Assembly (NCBI GenBank): GCA_951406725.2
Contig: OX597814.1
Location: forward strand, 150,226,001-150,290,000
Origin: Octopus vulgaris
Taxonomy: Eukaryota
Direction: 5' to 3'
Length of the DNA stretch: 64,000 bases
Below, in pieces: positions 2,919 to 64,000 of the stretch (the stretch's first letter is position 1; every line of letters begins with the position of its first letter). The position numbers were made by a program, and so were the translations under genes. Below the pieces are notes generated by a model, which saw only the letters and a list, made by a program, of their open reading frames with translations, ran no database searches and was not told where the DNA came from.

Positions 2919-3842
2919 TCGTGAGAGAGAGATGAAAATTCTTGAACTACAGATCAAGGAGACCAAAAATCCAAAGAGGTCTCTGTTAGAGTGAACTATA
3001 ACTGCAGAGCAAATATTTTCATTTTAAAGATTTAATGTTTCAGCAAAGACATTCCGCTTTCGCTAATTCATCGATAGCTTCCCGCCTCTCTGTCTCTCTC
3101 CCTCCCCGTCTCTCTCTCTCCCAATCTCCCCCTTCTCTCTCTCACACACATATTCAGTTGCTCTTTTAGAATATGGCCAGATGTTTCATCTCTCGTCTCG
3201 TCAGTAAAGACTAGTTACATTTGGATGTTAGGTATGTATCGTTAAAAAAAAAAGTGAGAAGCAGGAATTGGATGGGAGCTTGAATGAGGCAAAAAGAGAA
3301 AGAGGCTGGAAAGGCGAATAAGATATGAAGGAAGTGAGAAGGTAGGGGACTGAAAAGTGTAGAAAGCAATGTTTAAAATAATGTGAAGGAGAAGGGGATA
3401 GAAAGTTAACATGAATACTGTTAGAAGTATTAGTAAGTATTCTTGGAGTTATACAAACAATTTAAAAAGATAACAGGATAAAGCAATGGAAGAATGCTAA
3501 TAATATAAATACCGCCTATGCTAATTCAGAAAATAAGAATATTTATTTGGCTCAAAAAGAATACAATTTCTAGGAGCATGCGTTGGTTACTTTATATAAA
3601 TTAGGTATAACACTTCAGATAAATGGTATAATAATGTACTAGAAGAAGCTCGAAATGTATTTGGTAAGCTGAAGATTGTATGGGACTTTGTCATCCAGAC
3701 AGCTTGAATAAATGAATACCTTTTGCCAATATCCTTATACAAGCTATGGTAAAATGGGAGTGCCTTATAACAAATATTTCAATATCTTCCGACAATTTTA
3801 TCTACAAATAAACACGACCTTATGAGCCAGTGAAAAATATTG

Positions 3843-4053
3843 CTTTCAAAGTTTTGCACAATGTCAGCAAGTTCCGGGAAAGAGATAAATCAATTACATC
3901 GAGCGCAATGAGGAACTGGTACTTGCTTTGTGATGCCGAAAGGATGAAAAGCAAAGTCGACTTCAGCGGAATTTGAACTCAGAACATAAAGACGGACAAA
4001 ACGCTGCTAAGCATTCTGCCCGGTGTGCTAACGATTCTGTTAGCTCACCATCC
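3843..4053 (-). mobile_element. tRNA-derived SINE family B with ~20-bp target-site duplication
   Basis: Family-B body (gttctgagttcaaattccgc..gtcgactttgc..ttcatcctttcgg). Flanked by tgagccagtg(a/g)aaaatattg at 3823-3842 and 4054-4073. Confidence 0.85.
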
Positions 4054-4399
4054 TGAGCCAGTGGAAAATATTGATCATATTATTATATGTTTTAAAGGGC
4101 GGCAAGTGGAAGAATCGTTTGAGCATCAGAATAATTGATTTCCGTATTTCTCTCGACTCTTTACTTTCTGAGTTCAAATTTTATCGAAGTCAATTTTATT
4201 TTTCCTTCTTTCGGGATCCGTTAAAATAAATAGCCAGTCAAATATAGGTGTCGAAAATAGTGACTTACTCCTTCCACAACATAACTGTTGGCTTTGTGCA
4301 TAAATCAGACACCATATTGCTACAAGTTATAAAATATTAATTAAAAACAGTAAAATCAATAGTATAAGGTCTGACTTGATATTTAGTGGTCACTTTGTA

Positions 4400-4720
4400 C
4401 GAAAAACACGTCAGGATATTTCATCACAAATGAGTGTTCAGTTATGCATTAAAAAAGAATAATAGAACCTGGTAAATTAAAGATTCTACAGAACTTTGAT
4501 ACCCAGACCGACTACAGACAGAATAATTGAACACCGGAGACCAGATGTGATAGCATGTGTCATAGCAATAAGAATCTTTCACAATAGACGTTGCCATTCC
4601 TAAAGACAAAAGATATTGCAGACTAGGCAATAGAAAAGATTATAACATATGCTGAATTAAAACTAGAAATATCAAGAATATAGAGATATGGCAGTAATAA
4701 AAGATGTATCACCAGAGCAT
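4400..4720 (+). mobile_element. Degraded R4/Dong-like LINE fragment (restriction-like endonuclease region)
   Basis: Frameshifted translation IIEHRRPDVIA...FTIDVAIPKD matches the RPD..(n)..IDV.IP.D RLE motif. Confidence 0.65.
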
Positions 4721-4735
4721 TAGACTCAATCCTGT

Positions 4736-4774
<39 letters not shown>

Positions 4775-4775
4775 T

Positions 4776-5332
4776 TTGGGTTGTCCGGAAAGTTTGTGCC
4801 GATTTTTAAAGGAAAGGAAAAGGTCAATAAATACTTGTCATTACATTTTTAATCAACCAAATATGAACCAGTTTGTTGCACAATGCGTCTCCATCTTTCC
4901 TTTAACTTGAAAATACCCTCTTTCCAGAATTGAGGTGGTTTCATGGTAAAGAATCCATCAAGGTATCTTTTTACGTCATCCAAGGAATTGAAATTTTTAC
5001 CATTAAGACTATTCTGCAGAGACCTGAATAAGTGGAAATCGGAAGGAGCAATATCTGGTCAATATGGAGGGTGGAGGTAATACATCCCAACCGAGCTGCA
5101 GCAATTAATGTGTGGTTCCCAAAGCATCAAGTGCCGAAAATGAACTTTCTTATTTTCCATTTTAAAGGGTTACAGAATTAACACAGGTTATAGGAACATA
5201 AATCTTCTGCCACGGAAAGATAGCTTAAACTGTCCTCTAAATGGAGTCAAATCCTATTTTATGGATTCAACCATGTTCTAAAATGAGTCGAATGGTAAGC
5301 TACTATAAATCGGCACGAACTTTTCGGACAAC

Positions 5333-5336
<4 letters not shown>
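4776..5336 (-). mobile_element. Internally deleted mariner (DD34D-type) element with both TIRs
   Basis: TIRs ttgggttgtccggaaagtttgtgccgattt and aaatcggcacgaacttttcggacaacccaa within TA runs. Minus strand encodes HPPY*PDIAPSDFHLFRSLQNSLNGKNFNSLDDVK, the mariner YSPDLAPSD region. Confidence 0.9.
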
Positions 5337-5377
<41 letters not shown>

Positions 5378-5382
<5 letters not shown>

Positions 5383-5985
5383 GCTCGGGTTAAATGACGA
5401 TTTTTATGTCTCCTTTTTTTCAAGGACAGCTTGATGTATTGGTGAACAGCGTTGGAGAGCATAAAGGTTAAAGTTGGCGTTGAGAAAAAGTTAGTTGATA
5501 TGGAGGACTGGAAGCCGTTTGAATATTGGAAAATAATGATTCGCATTGGGTATAAAACTGCCGATATGAGTACAGCTCAATGCTCTGTGAACATTGTAAA
5601 ATCTGTAAGTCGTGACGTGGACGGCTGCAACGGAGACTACGAAAACATAGCCAACAGGAAGGGACACAACAAATGTTCTGATTGCGTGTGCACGCCTGGA
5701 TTCATCACAAATCCTCGAACAGGGTCTTAGGTTCAATTCAGACGGTTTTGTAAAGCTGCTGGAGACTAGTAAGGAATGCGACACAGTGAGGAATGCATTC
5801 ACCAGATTCCGGAACCGTCTTGAGGCCGTTGTGGAAGCTGACGGTGGCTACTTTGAGAAAACTGTTATCTCCCAGCCATAATCTAGCTATTATTTTTTAA
5901 GTTTAAAAAATGCTTTTATCTTTATACCGGATAGTGTGTTTTCTTGTCTATAGCTTTGCTATTATGTTAAACTGTCGTTGTTTGA
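5378..5985 (+). mobile_element. Internally deleted Tc1/mariner-superfamily element (maT/DD37D-like)
   Basis: Starts ta|gggtgctcgggttaaatgacg. Encodes N-terminal RKGHNKCSDCVCTPGFI and C-terminal VRNAFTRFRNRLEAVVEADGGYFE. The subfamily call is tentative. Confidence 0.65.
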
Positions 5986-32503: not shown

Positions 32504-32699
32504 ACATTATTTACATTATTTACATTCGACGGATATTTATCCTCATCTTCTTTGTTGTTAACACAACGTTTCAGCTGATATACCCACCAGCCTTCTTCAG
32601 GTGTTGTGTTAACAACAAACAAGATGAGGCCAAATATCCGTCGAACATAAATAACGTAAATAATGTACATAATTCCTCATCTCTTAAATATAGAACTGT
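32504..32699. mobile_element. Miniature PLE insertion: 64-bp inverted arms around an HHR, with 12-bp TSD, inside a decayed SINE A
   Basis: Arms 32504-32567 and 32603-32666. TSD aaaac(a/g)aaacat at 32496-32507 and 32700-32711. Confidence 0.75.
32560..32605 (-). ncRNA. Minimal hammerhead ribozyme motif (canonical CUGAAGA core)
   Basis: aacac-ctgaaga-a-ggctggt-gggtat-atcagct-gaaa-cg-tt-gtgtt. Confidence 0.75.
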
Positions 32700-39320: not shown

Positions 39321-39500
39321 TTACCGCTAGCTACTAAAACTTTTTTATTCCCTCTCTCTCTCTTTATTTTCTCTTGTTCATTTTTGTTGAAGAGTGTAGG
39401 CTCGAAATGTAAAAGACTTTCTCACCTTCCCGAGCGTTAAACTAATACACCTGTTTGTTGTTTACACATCTGCCTTCGTCTTTTGTTTTTTGTAAATTCC

Positions 39501-43474: not shown

Positions 43475-43972
43475 GATATGTGTGTATGTGTGTTTCTCTA
43501 GCCATGTCTCTTTCCTAAGCCGCTGCCTACATCACCGACTCATCCCTAAAGGTTTCCGCCTCCACTTCCACCCTGCTCTCCACTCGGATTCTTCCATCTT
43601 ACCCATACTCCGCACCACATCTTACCGCCTTATGCGGGCCACCATTCGCTCCAATCTCTCCAAACTACAAGCCATCAACCGCCTTCTTCCTCCTGCTTTC
43701 TCCACCTTCTTCTCCTCTCTGCCGCCTCTCTATGCTCCAAACACGCTACGCTTCATTATCCATTTGAATCAACTCTTCCATCAATTTCTTTCTGATACCA
43801 AACTTCGTAAACTCCAATCACTCTTCCATTCCACCCTACCCGACGCCACTACCCCAACTCCTCCACCACCCTTCTCCCCTCCCGATAGGCTCCATCCACC
43901 CACACCTAACCCCACTGCCCCTCCCTACAACCCCTTCTCCCCTCCCGTTAGGCTCCATCCACCTACACCTAA

Positions 43973-46630
43973 CCCTACTGCCCCGCCCAACCACCCCCAC
44001 ACACCTCCCCAATCCCTCCCCCTCAGACCTCCACGAGACCTACCACCCCTCCTACTTCTATTCCACCCACCCCTTCTCCACTTCCGTCTGTTGTTACCAT
44101 TCCCCCCGATCTTCCCCTCTCTGCGGCTGAACGCTCCGTCCTTGGTAGGGGTCTGCGTTTCATCCCCCTCACTCCATCCTGTAAGGAATTCCAGACGCGA
44201 GTTGATGTCCACAGCTTTGTGCGCCGTGTCCGGTTGGGTGCGCATTACCACGACTCGCCACCCACACCCAACGAAGAGGACGACTGCTTCACTGGCCTGG
44301 GCCGCCGACCATCCCCGTGGACGCCTGCCCCTGGCCAGATCCTAGCAGTGGATCTTTTCGCGGGCGCTTGTCAGCGTGCGTTGGAGCGGTTCAACTTCTC
44401 CAGGCGCCAACGCCGCCTCAACATCTCCCCGGCTGAGCTCTTGGCTCTTCGTTCCCTCCAACGGCGCGCTGACATTATCATCAAACCGGCTGACAAGGGT
44501 GGAGCTGTAGTGGTGTGGCGCGCGGACCTCTATAGGGCCGAGGCTTTCCGCCAACTCAATGACACCTCCTTCTATTCCCCTCTGCCCTCTAACCCCACAC
44601 GTAGCTACCAACAGACGGTATCCTCTACTGTCCAAGACCTCATCTCGTCCTCCCGTCTCCCCCGCACCGCATCCAACCTAATTGTGCGAACCCCACGTAC
44701 CCCCACCATTTACTTCCTCCCCAAAATCCACAAACCCAACAACCCTGGCCGCCCCATCGTCTCCGCCTGTAACTGCCCCACGGAGCTCATCTCTAAATAC
44801 CTCGACCGTGTCCTTGCCCCCCTAGTGGCATCTCTTCCCTCCCACATCCACGATACCAACCATGCTCTCCGGCTTTTCAACTCTTTCTCCTTTCCTCCCG
44901 GCTCCTCCAAAATCCTTTTTACTATGGACATCCAAAGCCTCTATACTGTTATCCCTCACCACGAAGGACTGCAGGCCCTTCGACACTTTCTTGACCTCCG
45001 CTCTAACCCTGTACCTGACACCTCCACACTCATTCGTCTGGCCGAACTTGTCCTTACTCTGAACTGCTTCTCGTTCGCGGGCGAGTTCTACCATCAGGTC
45101 TCGGGAGTGGCCATGGGAACGCGAATGGGCCCCAACTATGCGAACCTGTTCGTTGGCTATGTTGAGGCCCAAATATTCTCTACTTTCACTGGTCCCACTC
45201 CTGAACTATATGGTCGTTATATTGACGACATTATCGGTGCCACCTCACTCTCCCGCGAACATCTAGATTCCTTCCTCTCTTTCGTCCAATCTTTCTATCC
45301 AGCCCTCCACTTCACTTCCACTATCTCCAACACCTCTGTCTCCTTCCTCGACATTTCGGTTAGCATTCTTGACTCCACTCTTACCACCTCCATTCACTAC
45401 AAACACACAGACTCACACTCATACCTCAACTTCTCTTCCTCCCACCCAGAACACACCAAGCTTTCCATCCCCTATTCCCAATTCCTCCGTCTACGTAGGC
45501 TCTGTAGTGACGACCATGACTTTGAGACTCAGTCTCAACGTATGGCTCACCACTTCACCCTACGTGGATACCCCCTCACCACTATCCACACCGCCCTTGC
45601 CAGAGCACGGTCCGTGGACCGTGTATCTGCTCTCTCTCCCCGAACCCGCCCTGTAGTCTCCCGCCTCCCTTTTCCCCTCACTTACCACCCCACGACCCTA
45701 CGTCTCCAACGCACCATTCTTCGAGCTTTCCGTCGTCTCCAGTCCGACCCGTCCACTTCACACCTCTTCCCTAACCGACCCCTCCCCTCTTTCAAACGAG
45801 CCCACAACCTTCGAGACCTTTTGGTCCATAGCTCCTTCCCTGACCCTACCTCCCAACCCGGCTCGTTCCCCTGCTCCCGCCCACGTTGCCGCACTTGCCC
45901 TTACCTCTCCAACACCACCCGCCTCACTAGCACCCACCATCGACCCTATCCCATCATCCACTCCTTCACCTGCACCTCCAGCAATATTATCTATTGCATC
46001 TCTTGCTCTCTCTGCAATTCCTTGTACATCGGACAAACGGGACGCCGCTTGGCTGACCGGTTCGCGGAACACCTTCGTGACATCCACCTTGCGAACGACA
46101 CACCGGTCTCACGCCATTTCCGCTCCACCGGTCACTCCTTGCAACACCTATCTGTGTTCGGTTTGTCCTTACACAGAGGCCATCCGGATTCCCGTTTGCG
46201 CCGTGAACAGGAATTAATCTTCTCTCTTCGCTCTTATACGCCATTTGGTCTCAACTCTCCCCCCTCCTCATCTAACCCCCCTCTCCCCCTCCTCACCTAT
46301 CCTTTCTCCCCCCGACCCCCACTTCTTCAGTCCTTCATCCTTTCACCCCTACTCCCCTTCCCTTCTTCCCTCTTTCTCCCTCCCTCTTCCCCTTCCCTCT
46401 GCTCCCTCACTCCCTCTCTCCCCTTCTCTCTCCCCCTCTCCCTCTTTCCTCCTTCATCCCTCTCCTCCCCTTCCTTCTCCCCATCCTCTCCACTTCACCC
46501 TCCCCTCCCCCTCTTCTTCCCCTCCCCTTCTCCCCCCTCTTCTCCCCTCCCCCTCTTCTCCTCACTACACCACATGACTTTACACATCACATCACATATG
46601 ATGTGCCATACTAATACACACACCAACTAA
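43973..46630 (+). CDS. PLE reverse transcriptase / GIY-YIG endonuclease (main frame; N-terminal part lies in ORF 43482-44345, one frameshift away)
   Basis: IKPADKGGAVVVW, YFLPKIHK..PGRPIVS, MDIQSLYT.IPH, GVAMGTRMGPNYANLF, RYIDDI, FLDI, SIPYSQFLRLRRLCS, CSRPRCRTC, NIIYCISC..C..LYIGQTGR.L..RF.EH. The frame is open from 43973 (LSAAERSVLGRGLRF). The tail after GLNS is probably run-on. Confidence 0.93.
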   Translation, partial: PYCPAQPPPHTSPIPPPQTSTRPTTPPTSIPPTPSPLPSVVTIPPDLPLSAAERSVLGRGLRFIPLTPSCKEFQTRVDVHSFVRRVRLGAHYHDSPPTPNEEDDCFTGLGRRPSPWTPAPGQILAVDLFAGACQRALERFNFSRRQRRLNISPAELLALRSLQRRADIIIKPADKGGAVVVWRADLYRAEAFRQLNDTSFYSPLPSNPTRSYQQTVSSTVQDLISSSRLPRTASNLIVRTPRTPTIYFLPKIHKPNNPGRPIVSACNCPTELISKYLDRVLAPLVASLPSHIHDTNHALRLFNSFSFPPGSSKILFTMDIQSLYTVIPHHEGLQALRHFLDLRSNPVPDTSTLIRLAELVLTLNCFSFAGEFYHQVSGVAMGTRMGPNYANLFVGYVEAQIFSTFTGPTPELYGRYIDDIIGATSLSREHLDSFLSFVQSFYPALHFTSTISNTSVSFLDISVSILDSTLTTSIHYKHTDSHSYLNFSSSHPEHTKLSIPYSQFLRLRRLCSDDHDFETQSQRMAHHFTLRGYPLTTIHTALARARSVDRVSALSPRTRPVVSRLPFPLTYHPTTLRLQRTILRAFRRLQSDPSTSHLFPNRPLPSFKRAHNLRDLLVHSSFPDPTSQPGSFPCSRPRCRTCPYLSNTTRLTSTHHRPYPIIHSFTCTSSNIIYCISCSLCNSLYIGQTGRRLADRFAEHLRDIHLANDTPVSRHFRSTGHSLQHLSVFGLSLHRGHPDSRLRREQELIFSLRSYTPFGLNSPPSSSNPPLPLLTYPFSPRPPLLQSFILSPLLPFPSSLFLPPSSPSLCSLTPSLPFSLPLSLFPPSSLSSPSFSPSSPLHPPLPLFFPSPSPPSSPLPLFSSLHHMTLHITSHMMCHTNTHTN

Positions 46631-47098
46631 TACATACTAATACGTACTAATACATACTAGTACATACTAATACTTACACCAACCCTATACATACACACGT
46701 CCAGACCCCGCATACGCACTTATACTCTCTCACACACACACACACACACCTATACATACCAATACGTACTAATACATACTAATACATACTAATACATACA
46801 CCAACCCCATACATACGCACGTCCAGACCAATCCCACGCACTGATACTCTCTCATACACACACACACACACACACACACCCTTATACATACTAATACATA
46901 CACCAACCCTATACATACACATCCAGACCCCTCCCACGCACTTTTAGCTGGTCCCTCAACCCTATTATCTCCCCTTATTTCGCTCTCGCGTCTCATGTTT
47001 GATCTTTGACCTCTGGCCGAAATCAGATCGCCATGTTGATTCGTTAGCTACTGCACGCATTTTTTCTCTCCTTCTTTCTGTGTTTTTCTCTCTGTGTA

Positions 47099-47136
47099 TC
47101 TTTCTGTTGAAGAGCGTAGGCTCGAAACGTTAAAGA
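47099..47136 (+). ncRNA. Minimal hammerhead-like motif with variant core CUGUUGA in the PLE pLTR
   Basis: tcttt-ctgttga-a-gagc-gtag-gctc-gaaa-cg-tt-aaaga. Confidence 0.6.
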
Positions 47137-47233
47137 CTTGTTTTATTTATATTTCCTGAGCGCCATACTAATACAATTGTTCGTTTGTTTTCCACCTGCC
47201 TTCGTCTTTTGTTTATTTTCATAAAGCTTCCCG

Positions 47234-47317
<84 letters not shown>

Positions 47318-47995: not shown

Positions 47996-48181
47996 ATATA
48001 GATAGATAGATAGATAGATAGATAGATGCGCAGGAATGGCTGTGTGATAAGTAGCTTGCTTGCCAACAATATGGTTCTGGGTTCAGTCCCACTGCGTGAT
48101 ACCTTGGGCAAGTTTCTTCTATTATAGCCTCGGGTTGACAAGACCCTTGTGAGTGGATTCGATAGACAGAAACTGAATGAA

Positions 48182-48260
<79 letters not shown>

Positions 48261-56361: not shown

Positions 56362-56780
56362 TATATTGACAAATTACAAATATACAAAAGACGAAGACGG
56401 GTTTCTAAACAACAAACAGATGTATTAGTTTAACGCTCGGGAAGCGAGAAAATCATTTACGTTTCGAGCCTACGCTCTTCAACAGAAAGGAACACAGAAA
56501 TAGAGAAAGTTAACAAAACTGGATTTAGCGGTGAGCGATCTATCATAGCGAATGCCGGAGAGAGGTGTGAGGCAGGAGAGCAAGGAAGAAGGGGAGATAA
56601 TAAAGTAGTGGTGATCCGAAAATGAAGGTGCGTGTGCGTGTGTATGTGAGAGCGTGTATGTGGTGTAAACGGGGGATGGTGACCTTGACATGTGCGTGTG
56701 TGCATGTGTAGGTGTGTGGATGATGGTGTGGGAACTAGGAAGTGGTCACTGTTAGTGTGTGAAGTGTGGTGTGGTGTATA
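56362..56780 (-). mobile_element. 3' fragment of the 43.5-47.2 kb PLE family
   Basis: Minus strand ccttt-ctgttga-a-gagcgtaggctc-gaaa-cg-ta-aatga at 56453-56490, with downstream homology to 47137-47234. Confidence 0.8.
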
Positions 56781-59153: not shown

Positions 59154-59200
59154 CATTACAGTTGAAAAGGTCTCAAATGACCGAAACCGGTACTGAAATG
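59154..59200 (+). ncRNA. Minimal hammerhead ribozyme motif with U3-A8 core (UUGAAAA)
   Basis: cattacag-ttgaaaa-ggtc-tcaaat-gacc-gaaa-ccgg-ta-ctgaaatg. Stem I pairs at 7 of 8 positions. Lies about 50 bp upstream of a (TA)n junction. Confidence 0.75.
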
Positions 59201-62369: not shown

Positions 62370-64000
62370 GATCAATAAATGGTGGGGTTGTGTTGACCGC
62401 ACGTGGAGAAATGATAAGTAAGGAAAAATTTTTTTAAAAATGCAGAATGCTCAAATGAAAGAAAATTTTAATAAAATGAGAAATTGATAAAATATATAAA
62501 TATATATTTATTCAACCGGTTTTCGTCATTGTACGACTTGTCAAGAATATTTATGTTTTAAAAAGTTTTTTTTTAAATTAGAAAGGGGAAAAAAAGAAAA
62601 TTGCATTGTTTTTTGTAAAAGAATAATGATAAAAATGTACAAAAATTAAAAATAAGTTCTCCGATACATTGTGAGTTCGTTGTGTATCTTGAGTTTTATG
62701 GTTGTTTACGAAAAAATTACCTTGAGGTGTTAAGATCCAAAGGGATTAAGAGCATGTGTTGTGTTGTTAAATTCAGCATGTTTGCAGGACAGGAAGTAGT
62801 AGTAATTGTGGTCCTGGTTCTTCAGTTCCTGTGTTGTGAGTAAGGGGAGACAACTCTTTTGAGTTCTTCAATAAAACCCAAATTATAAAATTATCATTTT
62901 AGCTTCATTTGCGTTATCTTTTTTATATAATTGCTTGTTAACTTAACTTTCAGATTTTAACACTTTATTTATATTATTTTCTAATTATATAAATCTGCAT
63001 AGACAATTGCATTTCAAATTGTCATATCATTTATAATAAAAATGATAGTAATAACAACAATAGTAAAAATGATACTTAAAGAATATAAGTTTTAGCTTGA
63101 AGTGATGAATGCATGGTATCTTTAAATATTTGTGTTAGTCCATCCATGAAGAGTGAGGTAGAGAAAGGAAGTTTGATCAACGAGGAGTTTGCATATTAAG
63201 TTGTGTTTGGAATTTTTCAATAAAGAGATTCTCCTTGTTAATTCTCTCCTGTGTGGTGATCCCGTCTTTACATTGGTAGAAGGGGAATATATAGAATTTG
63301 GGGTTTAAGTCTTTAGCACATGAGTCTAAGTGGTCACTCAGTGGAATTTGTCGGTATTCCGGGAGATTTATTTGTTCTTTATGCACCGTTACTCGTTTAC
63401 GTAACGGGAGACTCGTTTGTCCAACATAATTATGTTGGCAACCAGCGCATGTGAGAACGTAGATAAGGTTCTCGGAGGAACAGGAGAAGTTAGTCTTGAT
63501 TTTAAACTTCGTACCTTGTTTGAAGGTAAATTCAGAGCCTTCAAGTAGAAAGGGGCAGGTACCACAGTTTGAGCGTGCACATTTTTTTACTGTTGGGGGT
63601 GGATGTGGTGTGTGAAGTTTGGCAGGCATTTGTCAAGAGTTTTTTTAAAGATTTGTGTTGCCTTTTGCATTTGAGGATTTTGTGTGTATTTATAATGTTT
63701 TTCATTTTTGGGTCTGTTGACAGTAAACTGAGGTTTTGTATGATTGTGGTGTATGCTTCGATATTTTTGGGGTTGTGGGTGGAAATGTATGGAAGTATTT
63801 TGAGGTTGTGTGTGGTGTTAGGTTGGGTGGTTTTCAGTGTAGTGTTGTCTAGTTCTTTGGCGCGTTTTATTCCATACTCTATAAGGGTGGAGGGATATTG
63901 ACGTTGTAATAGTGTTTTTTTGAGGTCTTGAAGGCGTATTTCTCGTGTTTTTGGATCCGAGACAATGGTGCATACCCTTTTAGCTAAATTGAAAGGGATA
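62370..64000 (-). mobile_element. Penelope-like element (Neptune-like), running off the window edge
   Basis: Minus strand: IPFNLAKRVCTIVSD...LLQRQYP (RT thumb), then after a frameshift CARSNCGTCP..FSCSSENLIYVLTCAGCQHNYVGQT..LRKRVTVH (GIY-YIG; stop at 63177). The 3' UTR/pLTR ends at (TA)n. Confidence 0.92.
62509..62549 (-). ncRNA. Minimal hammerhead-like motif with U3-A8 core (UUGACAA)
   Basis: tattc-ttgacaa-gtcgt-aca-atgac-gaaa(a)-ccgg-tt-gaata. One extra A in the GAAA segment. Confidence 0.6.

Follow-up and report, generated by a model that had tools for sequence, protein, structure and literature searches.

The window, by which we mean the whole stretch of 64,000 nucleotides of Octopus vulgaris DNA that was analysed, holds on its plus strand a copy of a Penelope-like element (PLE) whose 3' end carries a hammerhead motif with a changed core base. 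The N-terminal part of the element's open reading frame (ORF), truncated at its 5' end, lies in an upstream frame at 43494..44345 (+), and an 885-aa frame at 43973..46630 (+) holds the reverse transcriptase (RT), a Cx4CxxC linker and a GIY-YIG endonuclease; RVT_1 scores above cut-off in this frame and GIY-YIG below it (E 0.005). The 3' UTR at 46631..47098 (+) has internal repeats; in partial-tandem copies it occurs again ahead of the 5' motif, as pLTR. Beyond the motif, a tail at 47137..47240 (+) runs to the 3' end of the element, which falls in a short internal TA run joining the genomic (TA)n target, and reverse transcription would start there, about 104 nt after motif position 17 (H17). Farther downstream, at about 48025-48185, lies a short interspersed repeat which we take to resemble a cephalopod SINE. 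The sequence-only reading had called this PLE near-intact and the most intact one, which overstates its condition: the copy has no 5' pLTR or 5' UTR, its first 45 or so codons are missing, and the frame is shifted because a C run near 43,994 is one base short, which is either real or an assembly error.

The window copy is 95.9-99.8% identical to 20 long loci of its family, and it matches long copies whose frames are open at 99.7% identity. In the long loci a unit of about 4.5 kb stands in partial tandem, with motifs about 4.4-4.6 kb apart, one per pLTR, and the ORF starts about 750 nt past the 5' motif; from 5 of 21 such ORF starts the frame exceeds 1,000 codons. At one locus (L128, G000:C6:117391100-117401099) we observed a head-to-tail array of three motifs about 4.47 kb apart, with a further RT match at C6:117402562. 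Since all 144 of the 144 RT matches scored are 98-100% identical, the family is young. Among proteins, the best relatives share 40-58% identity with it; those few that carry names come from sharks, snails, echinoderms and cnidarians. The features expected of the Neptune clade are found here: a single ORF, an RT with a DKG motif, a C-terminal GIY-YIG domain with CCHH, a Cx2-5CxxC linker (in this case Cx4CxxC), partial tandem pLTR structure and microsatellite targeting. Judging by these features, the linker being common to Nematis as well, the element is a young, (TA)n-inserting Neptune-type Penelope-like retroelement. The anatomy of RT, linker and GIY-YIG is given for Neptune and Nematis PLEs in PMC8557442, and the Neptune elements described there (Craig 2021) share with ours the RT, the Cx2-5CxxC linker, the C-terminal GIY-YIG with CCHH, the partial tandems and the microsatellite targeting, a comparison made by description only.

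At 47099-47136 (+), within the 3' pLTR of this element, the sequence forms a minimal type I hammerhead motif whose position 6 is U. All parts of the hammerhead geometry that the sequence-only reading had proposed can be located. The 5' arm of stem I (47099..47103) forms five of five pairs with its 3' arm (47132..47136); core positions 3-9 read CTGTTGA (47104..47110), with U6 at 47107 and the free N7 at 47108; the motif alignment places an extra A (47111) between positions 9 and 10.1. Stem II, GAGC/GCTC, has 4 bp, a 4-nt loop and the G10.1-C11.1 pair (47112-47123), and is followed by G12-A13-A14 (GAA, 47124-47126), the loop-less palindromic stem III ACGT (47127-47130) and H17, here a U (47131), which puts the predicted cut at 47131/47132. 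A long pyrimidine tract lies ahead of the core. Thus the extra base after A9, the G10.1-C11.1 pair and stems I and II, all features of PLE minimal hammerheads, are present. The absence of a loop on stem III had been singled out as requiring dimerisation; the loop-less ACGU is indeed there and the need for a dimer follows from the known model, but the feature is not special, being usual in the metazoan PLE hammerheads of PMC4209133 (Fig. S3, in the rows compared). The 15.2-16.2 palindrome that would allow a dimer stem III is present here, and departures from it in other copies are mostly CpG decay.

Two further copies in the window share the U6, as had been claimed: one at 56453..56490 (-), with H17 = A, in a short insertion of an older subfamily, and a decayed one at 39379..39416 (+), in which C3 has become T by CpG decay. 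A relaxed motif pattern finds two matches in the window and none in each of 100 shuffles, and an Rfam scan of the window gave no hammerhead among the 150 of 225 matches listed, most of those being microsatellite artefacts. Other hammerhead-like sequences also occur here: a canonical CUGAAGA minimal hammerhead at 32560-32605 (-), in a different repeat family and with a long extended stem I, and two whose core is the known U3-A8 variant and whose stem III contains CCGG, at 59157-59197 (+) and 62509-62549 (-), in AT-rich repeats adjoining TA runs.

How general is the changed base? In the 2.8 Gb genome (227 contigs), an exact 25-base pattern finds 17,610 matches with U6 and 226 with A6, so that CUGANGA copies, which as a majority would have refuted the fixed variant, are a small minority. 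With the other core positions left free, at most 1,062 matches have a non-U at position 6 genome-wide, which set against the 17,610 gives U6 a share of at least about 94%. When the core is left entirely free there are 24,731 matches, and among the first 100 listed, counted by eye, position 6 is U in 91, C in 6 and A in 3, and position 17 is G in 2. All 41 motifs from the 20 long loci have U6. The other two variable positions behave differently: in 30 loci chosen with the core left free, position 7 is A in 10, T in 9, G in 6 and C in 5, and position 17 is A in 22, U in 6, C in 2 and never G, whereas each of the fixed positions (C3, U4, G5, G8, A9, G12-A14, A15.1-U16.1) is kept in 26-30 of the 30. 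The A6-bearing CUGANGA core, otherwise a mark of PLE minimal hammerheads, is therefore not the core of this family. The family-fixed form is CUGUNGA, with any base at N7 and A, U or C at H17. The earlier proposal of a fixed CUGUUGA thus holds for U6 and fails for U7, and its view that U6 is not copy-specific decay is strongly supported by the genome-wide counts, by the long loci and by the conservation of the motif between diverged flanks.

The exceptions do not form a clear rival lineage. On a flank tree of 82 rows the A6 copies are scattered among the U6 subfamilies (25 changes for 34 rows, against a shuffled mean of 26.5), and such scattered A6 copies in every subfamily would be the pattern expected of later point mutation. 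One group of four A6 rows has support of 92/75, and among 100 listed copies of the old subfamily position 6 is A in 6, C in 16, G in 1 and U in 77 (by eye); an old A6 sub-lineage within the family is hinted at by these sequences, in a form not separable from decay. U6 itself persists across the C17, A17 and U17 layers and across four organism labels. In the C17 layer, where the search covered position-4 mutants only, the 13 in-register rows out of 55 comprise 12 with U6 and one with C6 (by eye). In contigs of four runs, labelled organisms A to D, no other letter reaches 1% at position 6, and positions 7 and 17 vary in all four. A second CTGTTGA repeat, present in 38 exact copies, was set aside as a different motif, having G at position 17 and no stem I. 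Another repeat family (L231-L260, G000) carries several hammerhead-like pieces in a row, with three core-like heptamers and several GAAA blocks; its last piece has a U6-type core with G at position 17.

The motif has been held constant while its surroundings have changed. Comparing the window copy with the majority of 30 old-subfamily copies, which were chosen by a tail anchor outside the motif and with the 19 anchor columns excluded, we find that 1 of 28 motif columns differs, namely H17, as against 55 of 125 flank columns, a flank divergence that may be inflated by low-complexity alignment (Fisher p 1.8e-5). Between subfamilies the core changes at N7, where all four bases occur, and at H17, where A, U and C occur and G is sporadic. 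N7 and H17 are the positions that hammerhead chemistry leaves free. The core consensus itself is given in PMC7151607. Loop II is unchanged too between the old subfamily and the window copy, which catalysis alone would not require. Inside the family the stems are nearly invariant; two U6 copies (L225 and L333) have compensatory changes in stem II, though these may be double transitions that arose by chance. Unrelated sequences (L380, L267, L270, L271 and L275) also have U6 motifs, whose stems pair but differ from those of the family.

Relatives of the family indicate the direction of the change. Searching for the frame of the motif combined with a differing stem II gave 121 matches; by eye, about 20 of the 100 listed are U6 or C6 double mutants of the window family, and roughly 77 are other motifs, nearly all A6, with a few G6. 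The older motifs of this genome, whose different stem II is paired, thus mostly have A6. When the tails of 30 fetched motifs were scored against the family profile, two non-U6 motifs, L313 (A6, 15.7 bits) and L328 (G6, 7.6), beat all 600 shuffles, whose maximum was 4.4; two were borderline, and the other non-family motifs gave no score. Among 37 loci with protein relatives of the element, 14 of 17 motif matches are A6, including that of L367, the closest protein relative with a motif match (53%). The remaining three are U6 and lie in a tandem array of about 930 bp units at L380, beside a distant endonuclease-less PLE; their paired stems are quite different from ours, and because they are about 99% alike we count them as one event. 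Since both the older relatives in the same genome and the protein relatives elsewhere have A6, we take U6 to be the derived state.

The L380 locus has a structure of its own: at 3103-5800 an endonuclease-less PLE-like ORF and then an A6 hammerhead precede three tandem units, each some 930 bp long and containing a U6 hammerhead, with a common 3' sequence. The PLE RT genes at L367-L403, up to 59% identical, lie inside bacterial genome bins and are most likely eukaryotic contamination of those bins. On metagenome contigs, L267, L271, L275 and L270 carry U6 minimal hammerhead-like motifs with stems I and II paired, three of them sharing upstream flanks. The metagenome scan that required U6 gave 16 matches, four with convincing stems, about the chance level overall, and because U6 was demanded it cannot show fixation elsewhere. 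A search of viral contigs found no relatives.

The ends of the insertions bear on how the motif is used. A TA or AC run lies 92-110 nt after H17 in 31 of 53 copies, at other distances in 11 and nowhere in 11, and long copies carry internally the short TA run at which insertions end. We infer that reverse transcription starts at this downstream TA run, about 100 nt after H17. At 47233-47240 in the window and in the 5' pLTRs of L121-L140 the 3' end falls within the short internal TA run matching the (TA)n target, which suggests microhomology-primed reverse transcription and insertion into the element's own pLTR. On the 5' side, none of 30 long copies begins at the predicted cut and 22 of the 30 run through a second intact motif; among short copies chosen by their tail at most 1 of 30 starts there. 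Because uncut templates and re-ligated circles would give the same picture, these 5' ends are uninformative on cleavage, and the intact motifs in genomic copies neither show nor exclude it.

The kind of hammerhead is a known one. The metazoan PLE pLTR hammerheads of Cervera and de la Pena 2014 (PMC4209133) resemble the window motif in being minimal type I motifs with a short stem I, an extra base between 9 and 10.1, the G10.1-C11.1 pair and a palindromic loop-less stem III, with one motif per pLTR and very many solo copies. Their consensus, however, is CUGANGAH, with A6 in all the alignment rows compared and core variants there only at positions 3 and 8, whereas in the window family U6 is fixed in an amplifying lineage. 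A precedent for a pyrimidine at position 6 in an otherwise unchanged core is the natural A6C hammerhead of phage Bcep176 (Perreault 2011, PMC3088659; Naghdi 2020, PMC7151607). That, however, is a single phage sequence with C, cleaving slowly and preferring Mn2+, while the candidate ribozyme of the window family has U, in more than 17,000 copies on a dimer-type minimal scaffold. In the Anolis Poseidon element PAc (Frangieh 2024, PMC11167929) the motif likewise sits ahead of an internal start of reverse transcription, which by the published coordinates falls about 85-92 nt past the cut as compared with about 100 nt here, and the targets of both are AT-rich; but PAc's motif overlaps the ORF start and initiation occurs at a site non-homologous to the target, whereas our ORF lies about 750 nt downstream and the TA run matches the (TA)n target. 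In the literature searched and in the rows of PMC4209133 compared we found no report of an A6U hammerhead, and in PMC6257768 no passage on A6. The U6 variant is real and family-fixed, and within the literature searched its fixed core is new to a known kind, the PLE minimal hammerhead. Small dimer-cleaving PLE hammerhead variants with a diminished stem III have reportedly been described by Lunse, Weinberg and Breaker in 2017.

What, then, could a fixed U6 do? The reading we put first, and to which we would give an even chance, is that the motif is a slowed but still self-cleaving hammerhead, whose cutting would depend on dimerisation or on assistance from the element's protein. Our reason is that reverse transcription, if it begins some 100 nt downstream as the insertion ends suggest, has to pass through the motif. 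An RNA cut at the motif would yield only a stub when copied from that start, while a slow ribozyme would protect the template and still allow occasional processing of tandem transcripts to unit-length or circular RNA; the predicted U6-A15.1 pair would meanwhile hold the monomer in an off hairpin. From the lack of long copies starting at the cut and the frequent passage through a second motif we infer selection against fast cutting. Published values make a slow ribozyme plausible: the natural A6C hammerhead proceeds at 0.0041 per min in 1 mM Mg2+ and 0.31 per min in Mn2+ (PMC7151607), and the anole PLE hammerhead needs protein, its main template being unprocessed RNA (PMC11167929). Deep mutagenesis of a type III hammerhead gave low activity for all single changes in CUGA (PMC9901934), and since in published mutagenesis changes at A6 reduce activity sharply, "slow" fits better than "fully active". 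On the other hand, even with A6 the minimal hammerheads of PLEs are weak (PMC4209133), so that U6 might abolish cutting altogether. The freedom at N7 and the avoidance of G at H17 tip the balance somewhat towards catalysis, the H17 argument resting on only two or three lineage changes.

Folding predictions suggest one way in which U6 might act. Across all N7 classes a U6-A15.1 pair is predicted which, together with G5-C15.2 and U4-G16.2, would form a short helix covering half of stem III; the probability of the pair is 0.41-0.98 in all six U6 classes as against 0.0 in nine non-U classes (first member per class). In the monomer fold predicted for the window copy, stem I, the U6-A15.1 helix, a tandem G-A loop and stem II form one long hairpin. 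In a 200-nt context the pair probability is 0.77 for stem II and 0.31-0.37 for stem I; the dimer of lowest energy (-26.8 kcal/mol) differs from the catalytic one (-13.7), the motif fold is no more stable than shuffles (z -0.48), and non-U6 copies also fold into other off pairings. Because the U6-A15.1 pair follows automatically from U6, its prediction is no evidence of selection. One can nevertheless imagine a stronger version, which we think rather unlikely and which leans on these models, in which U6 is a selected latch that locks the monomer through A15.1, so that cutting occurs only in the dimer, with the element protein or in Mn2+. Such a latch would have arisen more than once in PLEs, in the window family and in the L380 array, and CUGUNGA would then be a recurrent conditional class missed by CUGANGA searches.

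The main competitor to a slowed ribozyme, less probable in our estimate, is that catalysis has been lost and the fold survives because it serves the element protein as an RNA signal, some 100 nt ahead of the point where reverse transcription would begin. The long hairpin is just what is predicted for the monomer, its U6-A15.1 pair appears only in the U6 classes, and the conservation of loop II, which catalysis leaves free, would also be accounted for. Moreover, cleavage is dispensable for insertion of the anole PLE in vitro (PMC11167929), and Naiads amplify without canonical hammerheads (PMC8557442). Yet a U7 would lengthen the hairpin and a G17 would close with C3, and for all that N7 is free and G17 only sporadic, few events though these are; and the anole minimal template needs no pLTR upstream of +20, omitting the first half of its hammerhead core (PMC11167929).

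Two further accounts carry less weight. U6 could serve an overlapping role at the level of DNA or transcript processing, such as an internal promoter, an endonuclease site or a splice acceptor after a pyrimidine tract, for which the motif would be kept. The tract ahead of the core would suit this, as would the Drosophila virilis intron that ends at helix I (PMC4209133), but a free N7 and H17 within an otherwise fixed block match hammerhead rules, and we regard the idea as improbable. For its splicing variant in particular, four of four presumed RNA runs showed no joints over 1,481 nt, judged from contigs only, which are short near the motif, and two contigs continue unspliced from the 5' UTR into the ORF. 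Neither a promoter nor a splicing role finds support in these contigs. Least probable of all, and largely refuted by the near-constancy of the motif beside its diverged flanks, is that the change to U6 inactivated the ribozyme in a single master copy and was carried along by hitchhiking, leaving a motif now without a role. Retroelement families do expand from few masters, and fixation at a single site needs no selection, but the persistence of U6 through successive layers of H17 and in all four organism labels speaks against this as well.

Hammerheads are widespread in PLEs, weak in vitro and, in one reconstituted system, dispensable. With more than 24,000 motif copies, near-identical open frames, and one core base changed while the rest is conserved, the present family amounts to a natural experiment on what they are for. 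Should the U6 form prove able to cut, the hammerhead consensus would have to be broadened, and large families are being overlooked by descriptor searches; should it prove unable to, PLEs are keeping the fold for a purpose other than cleavage.
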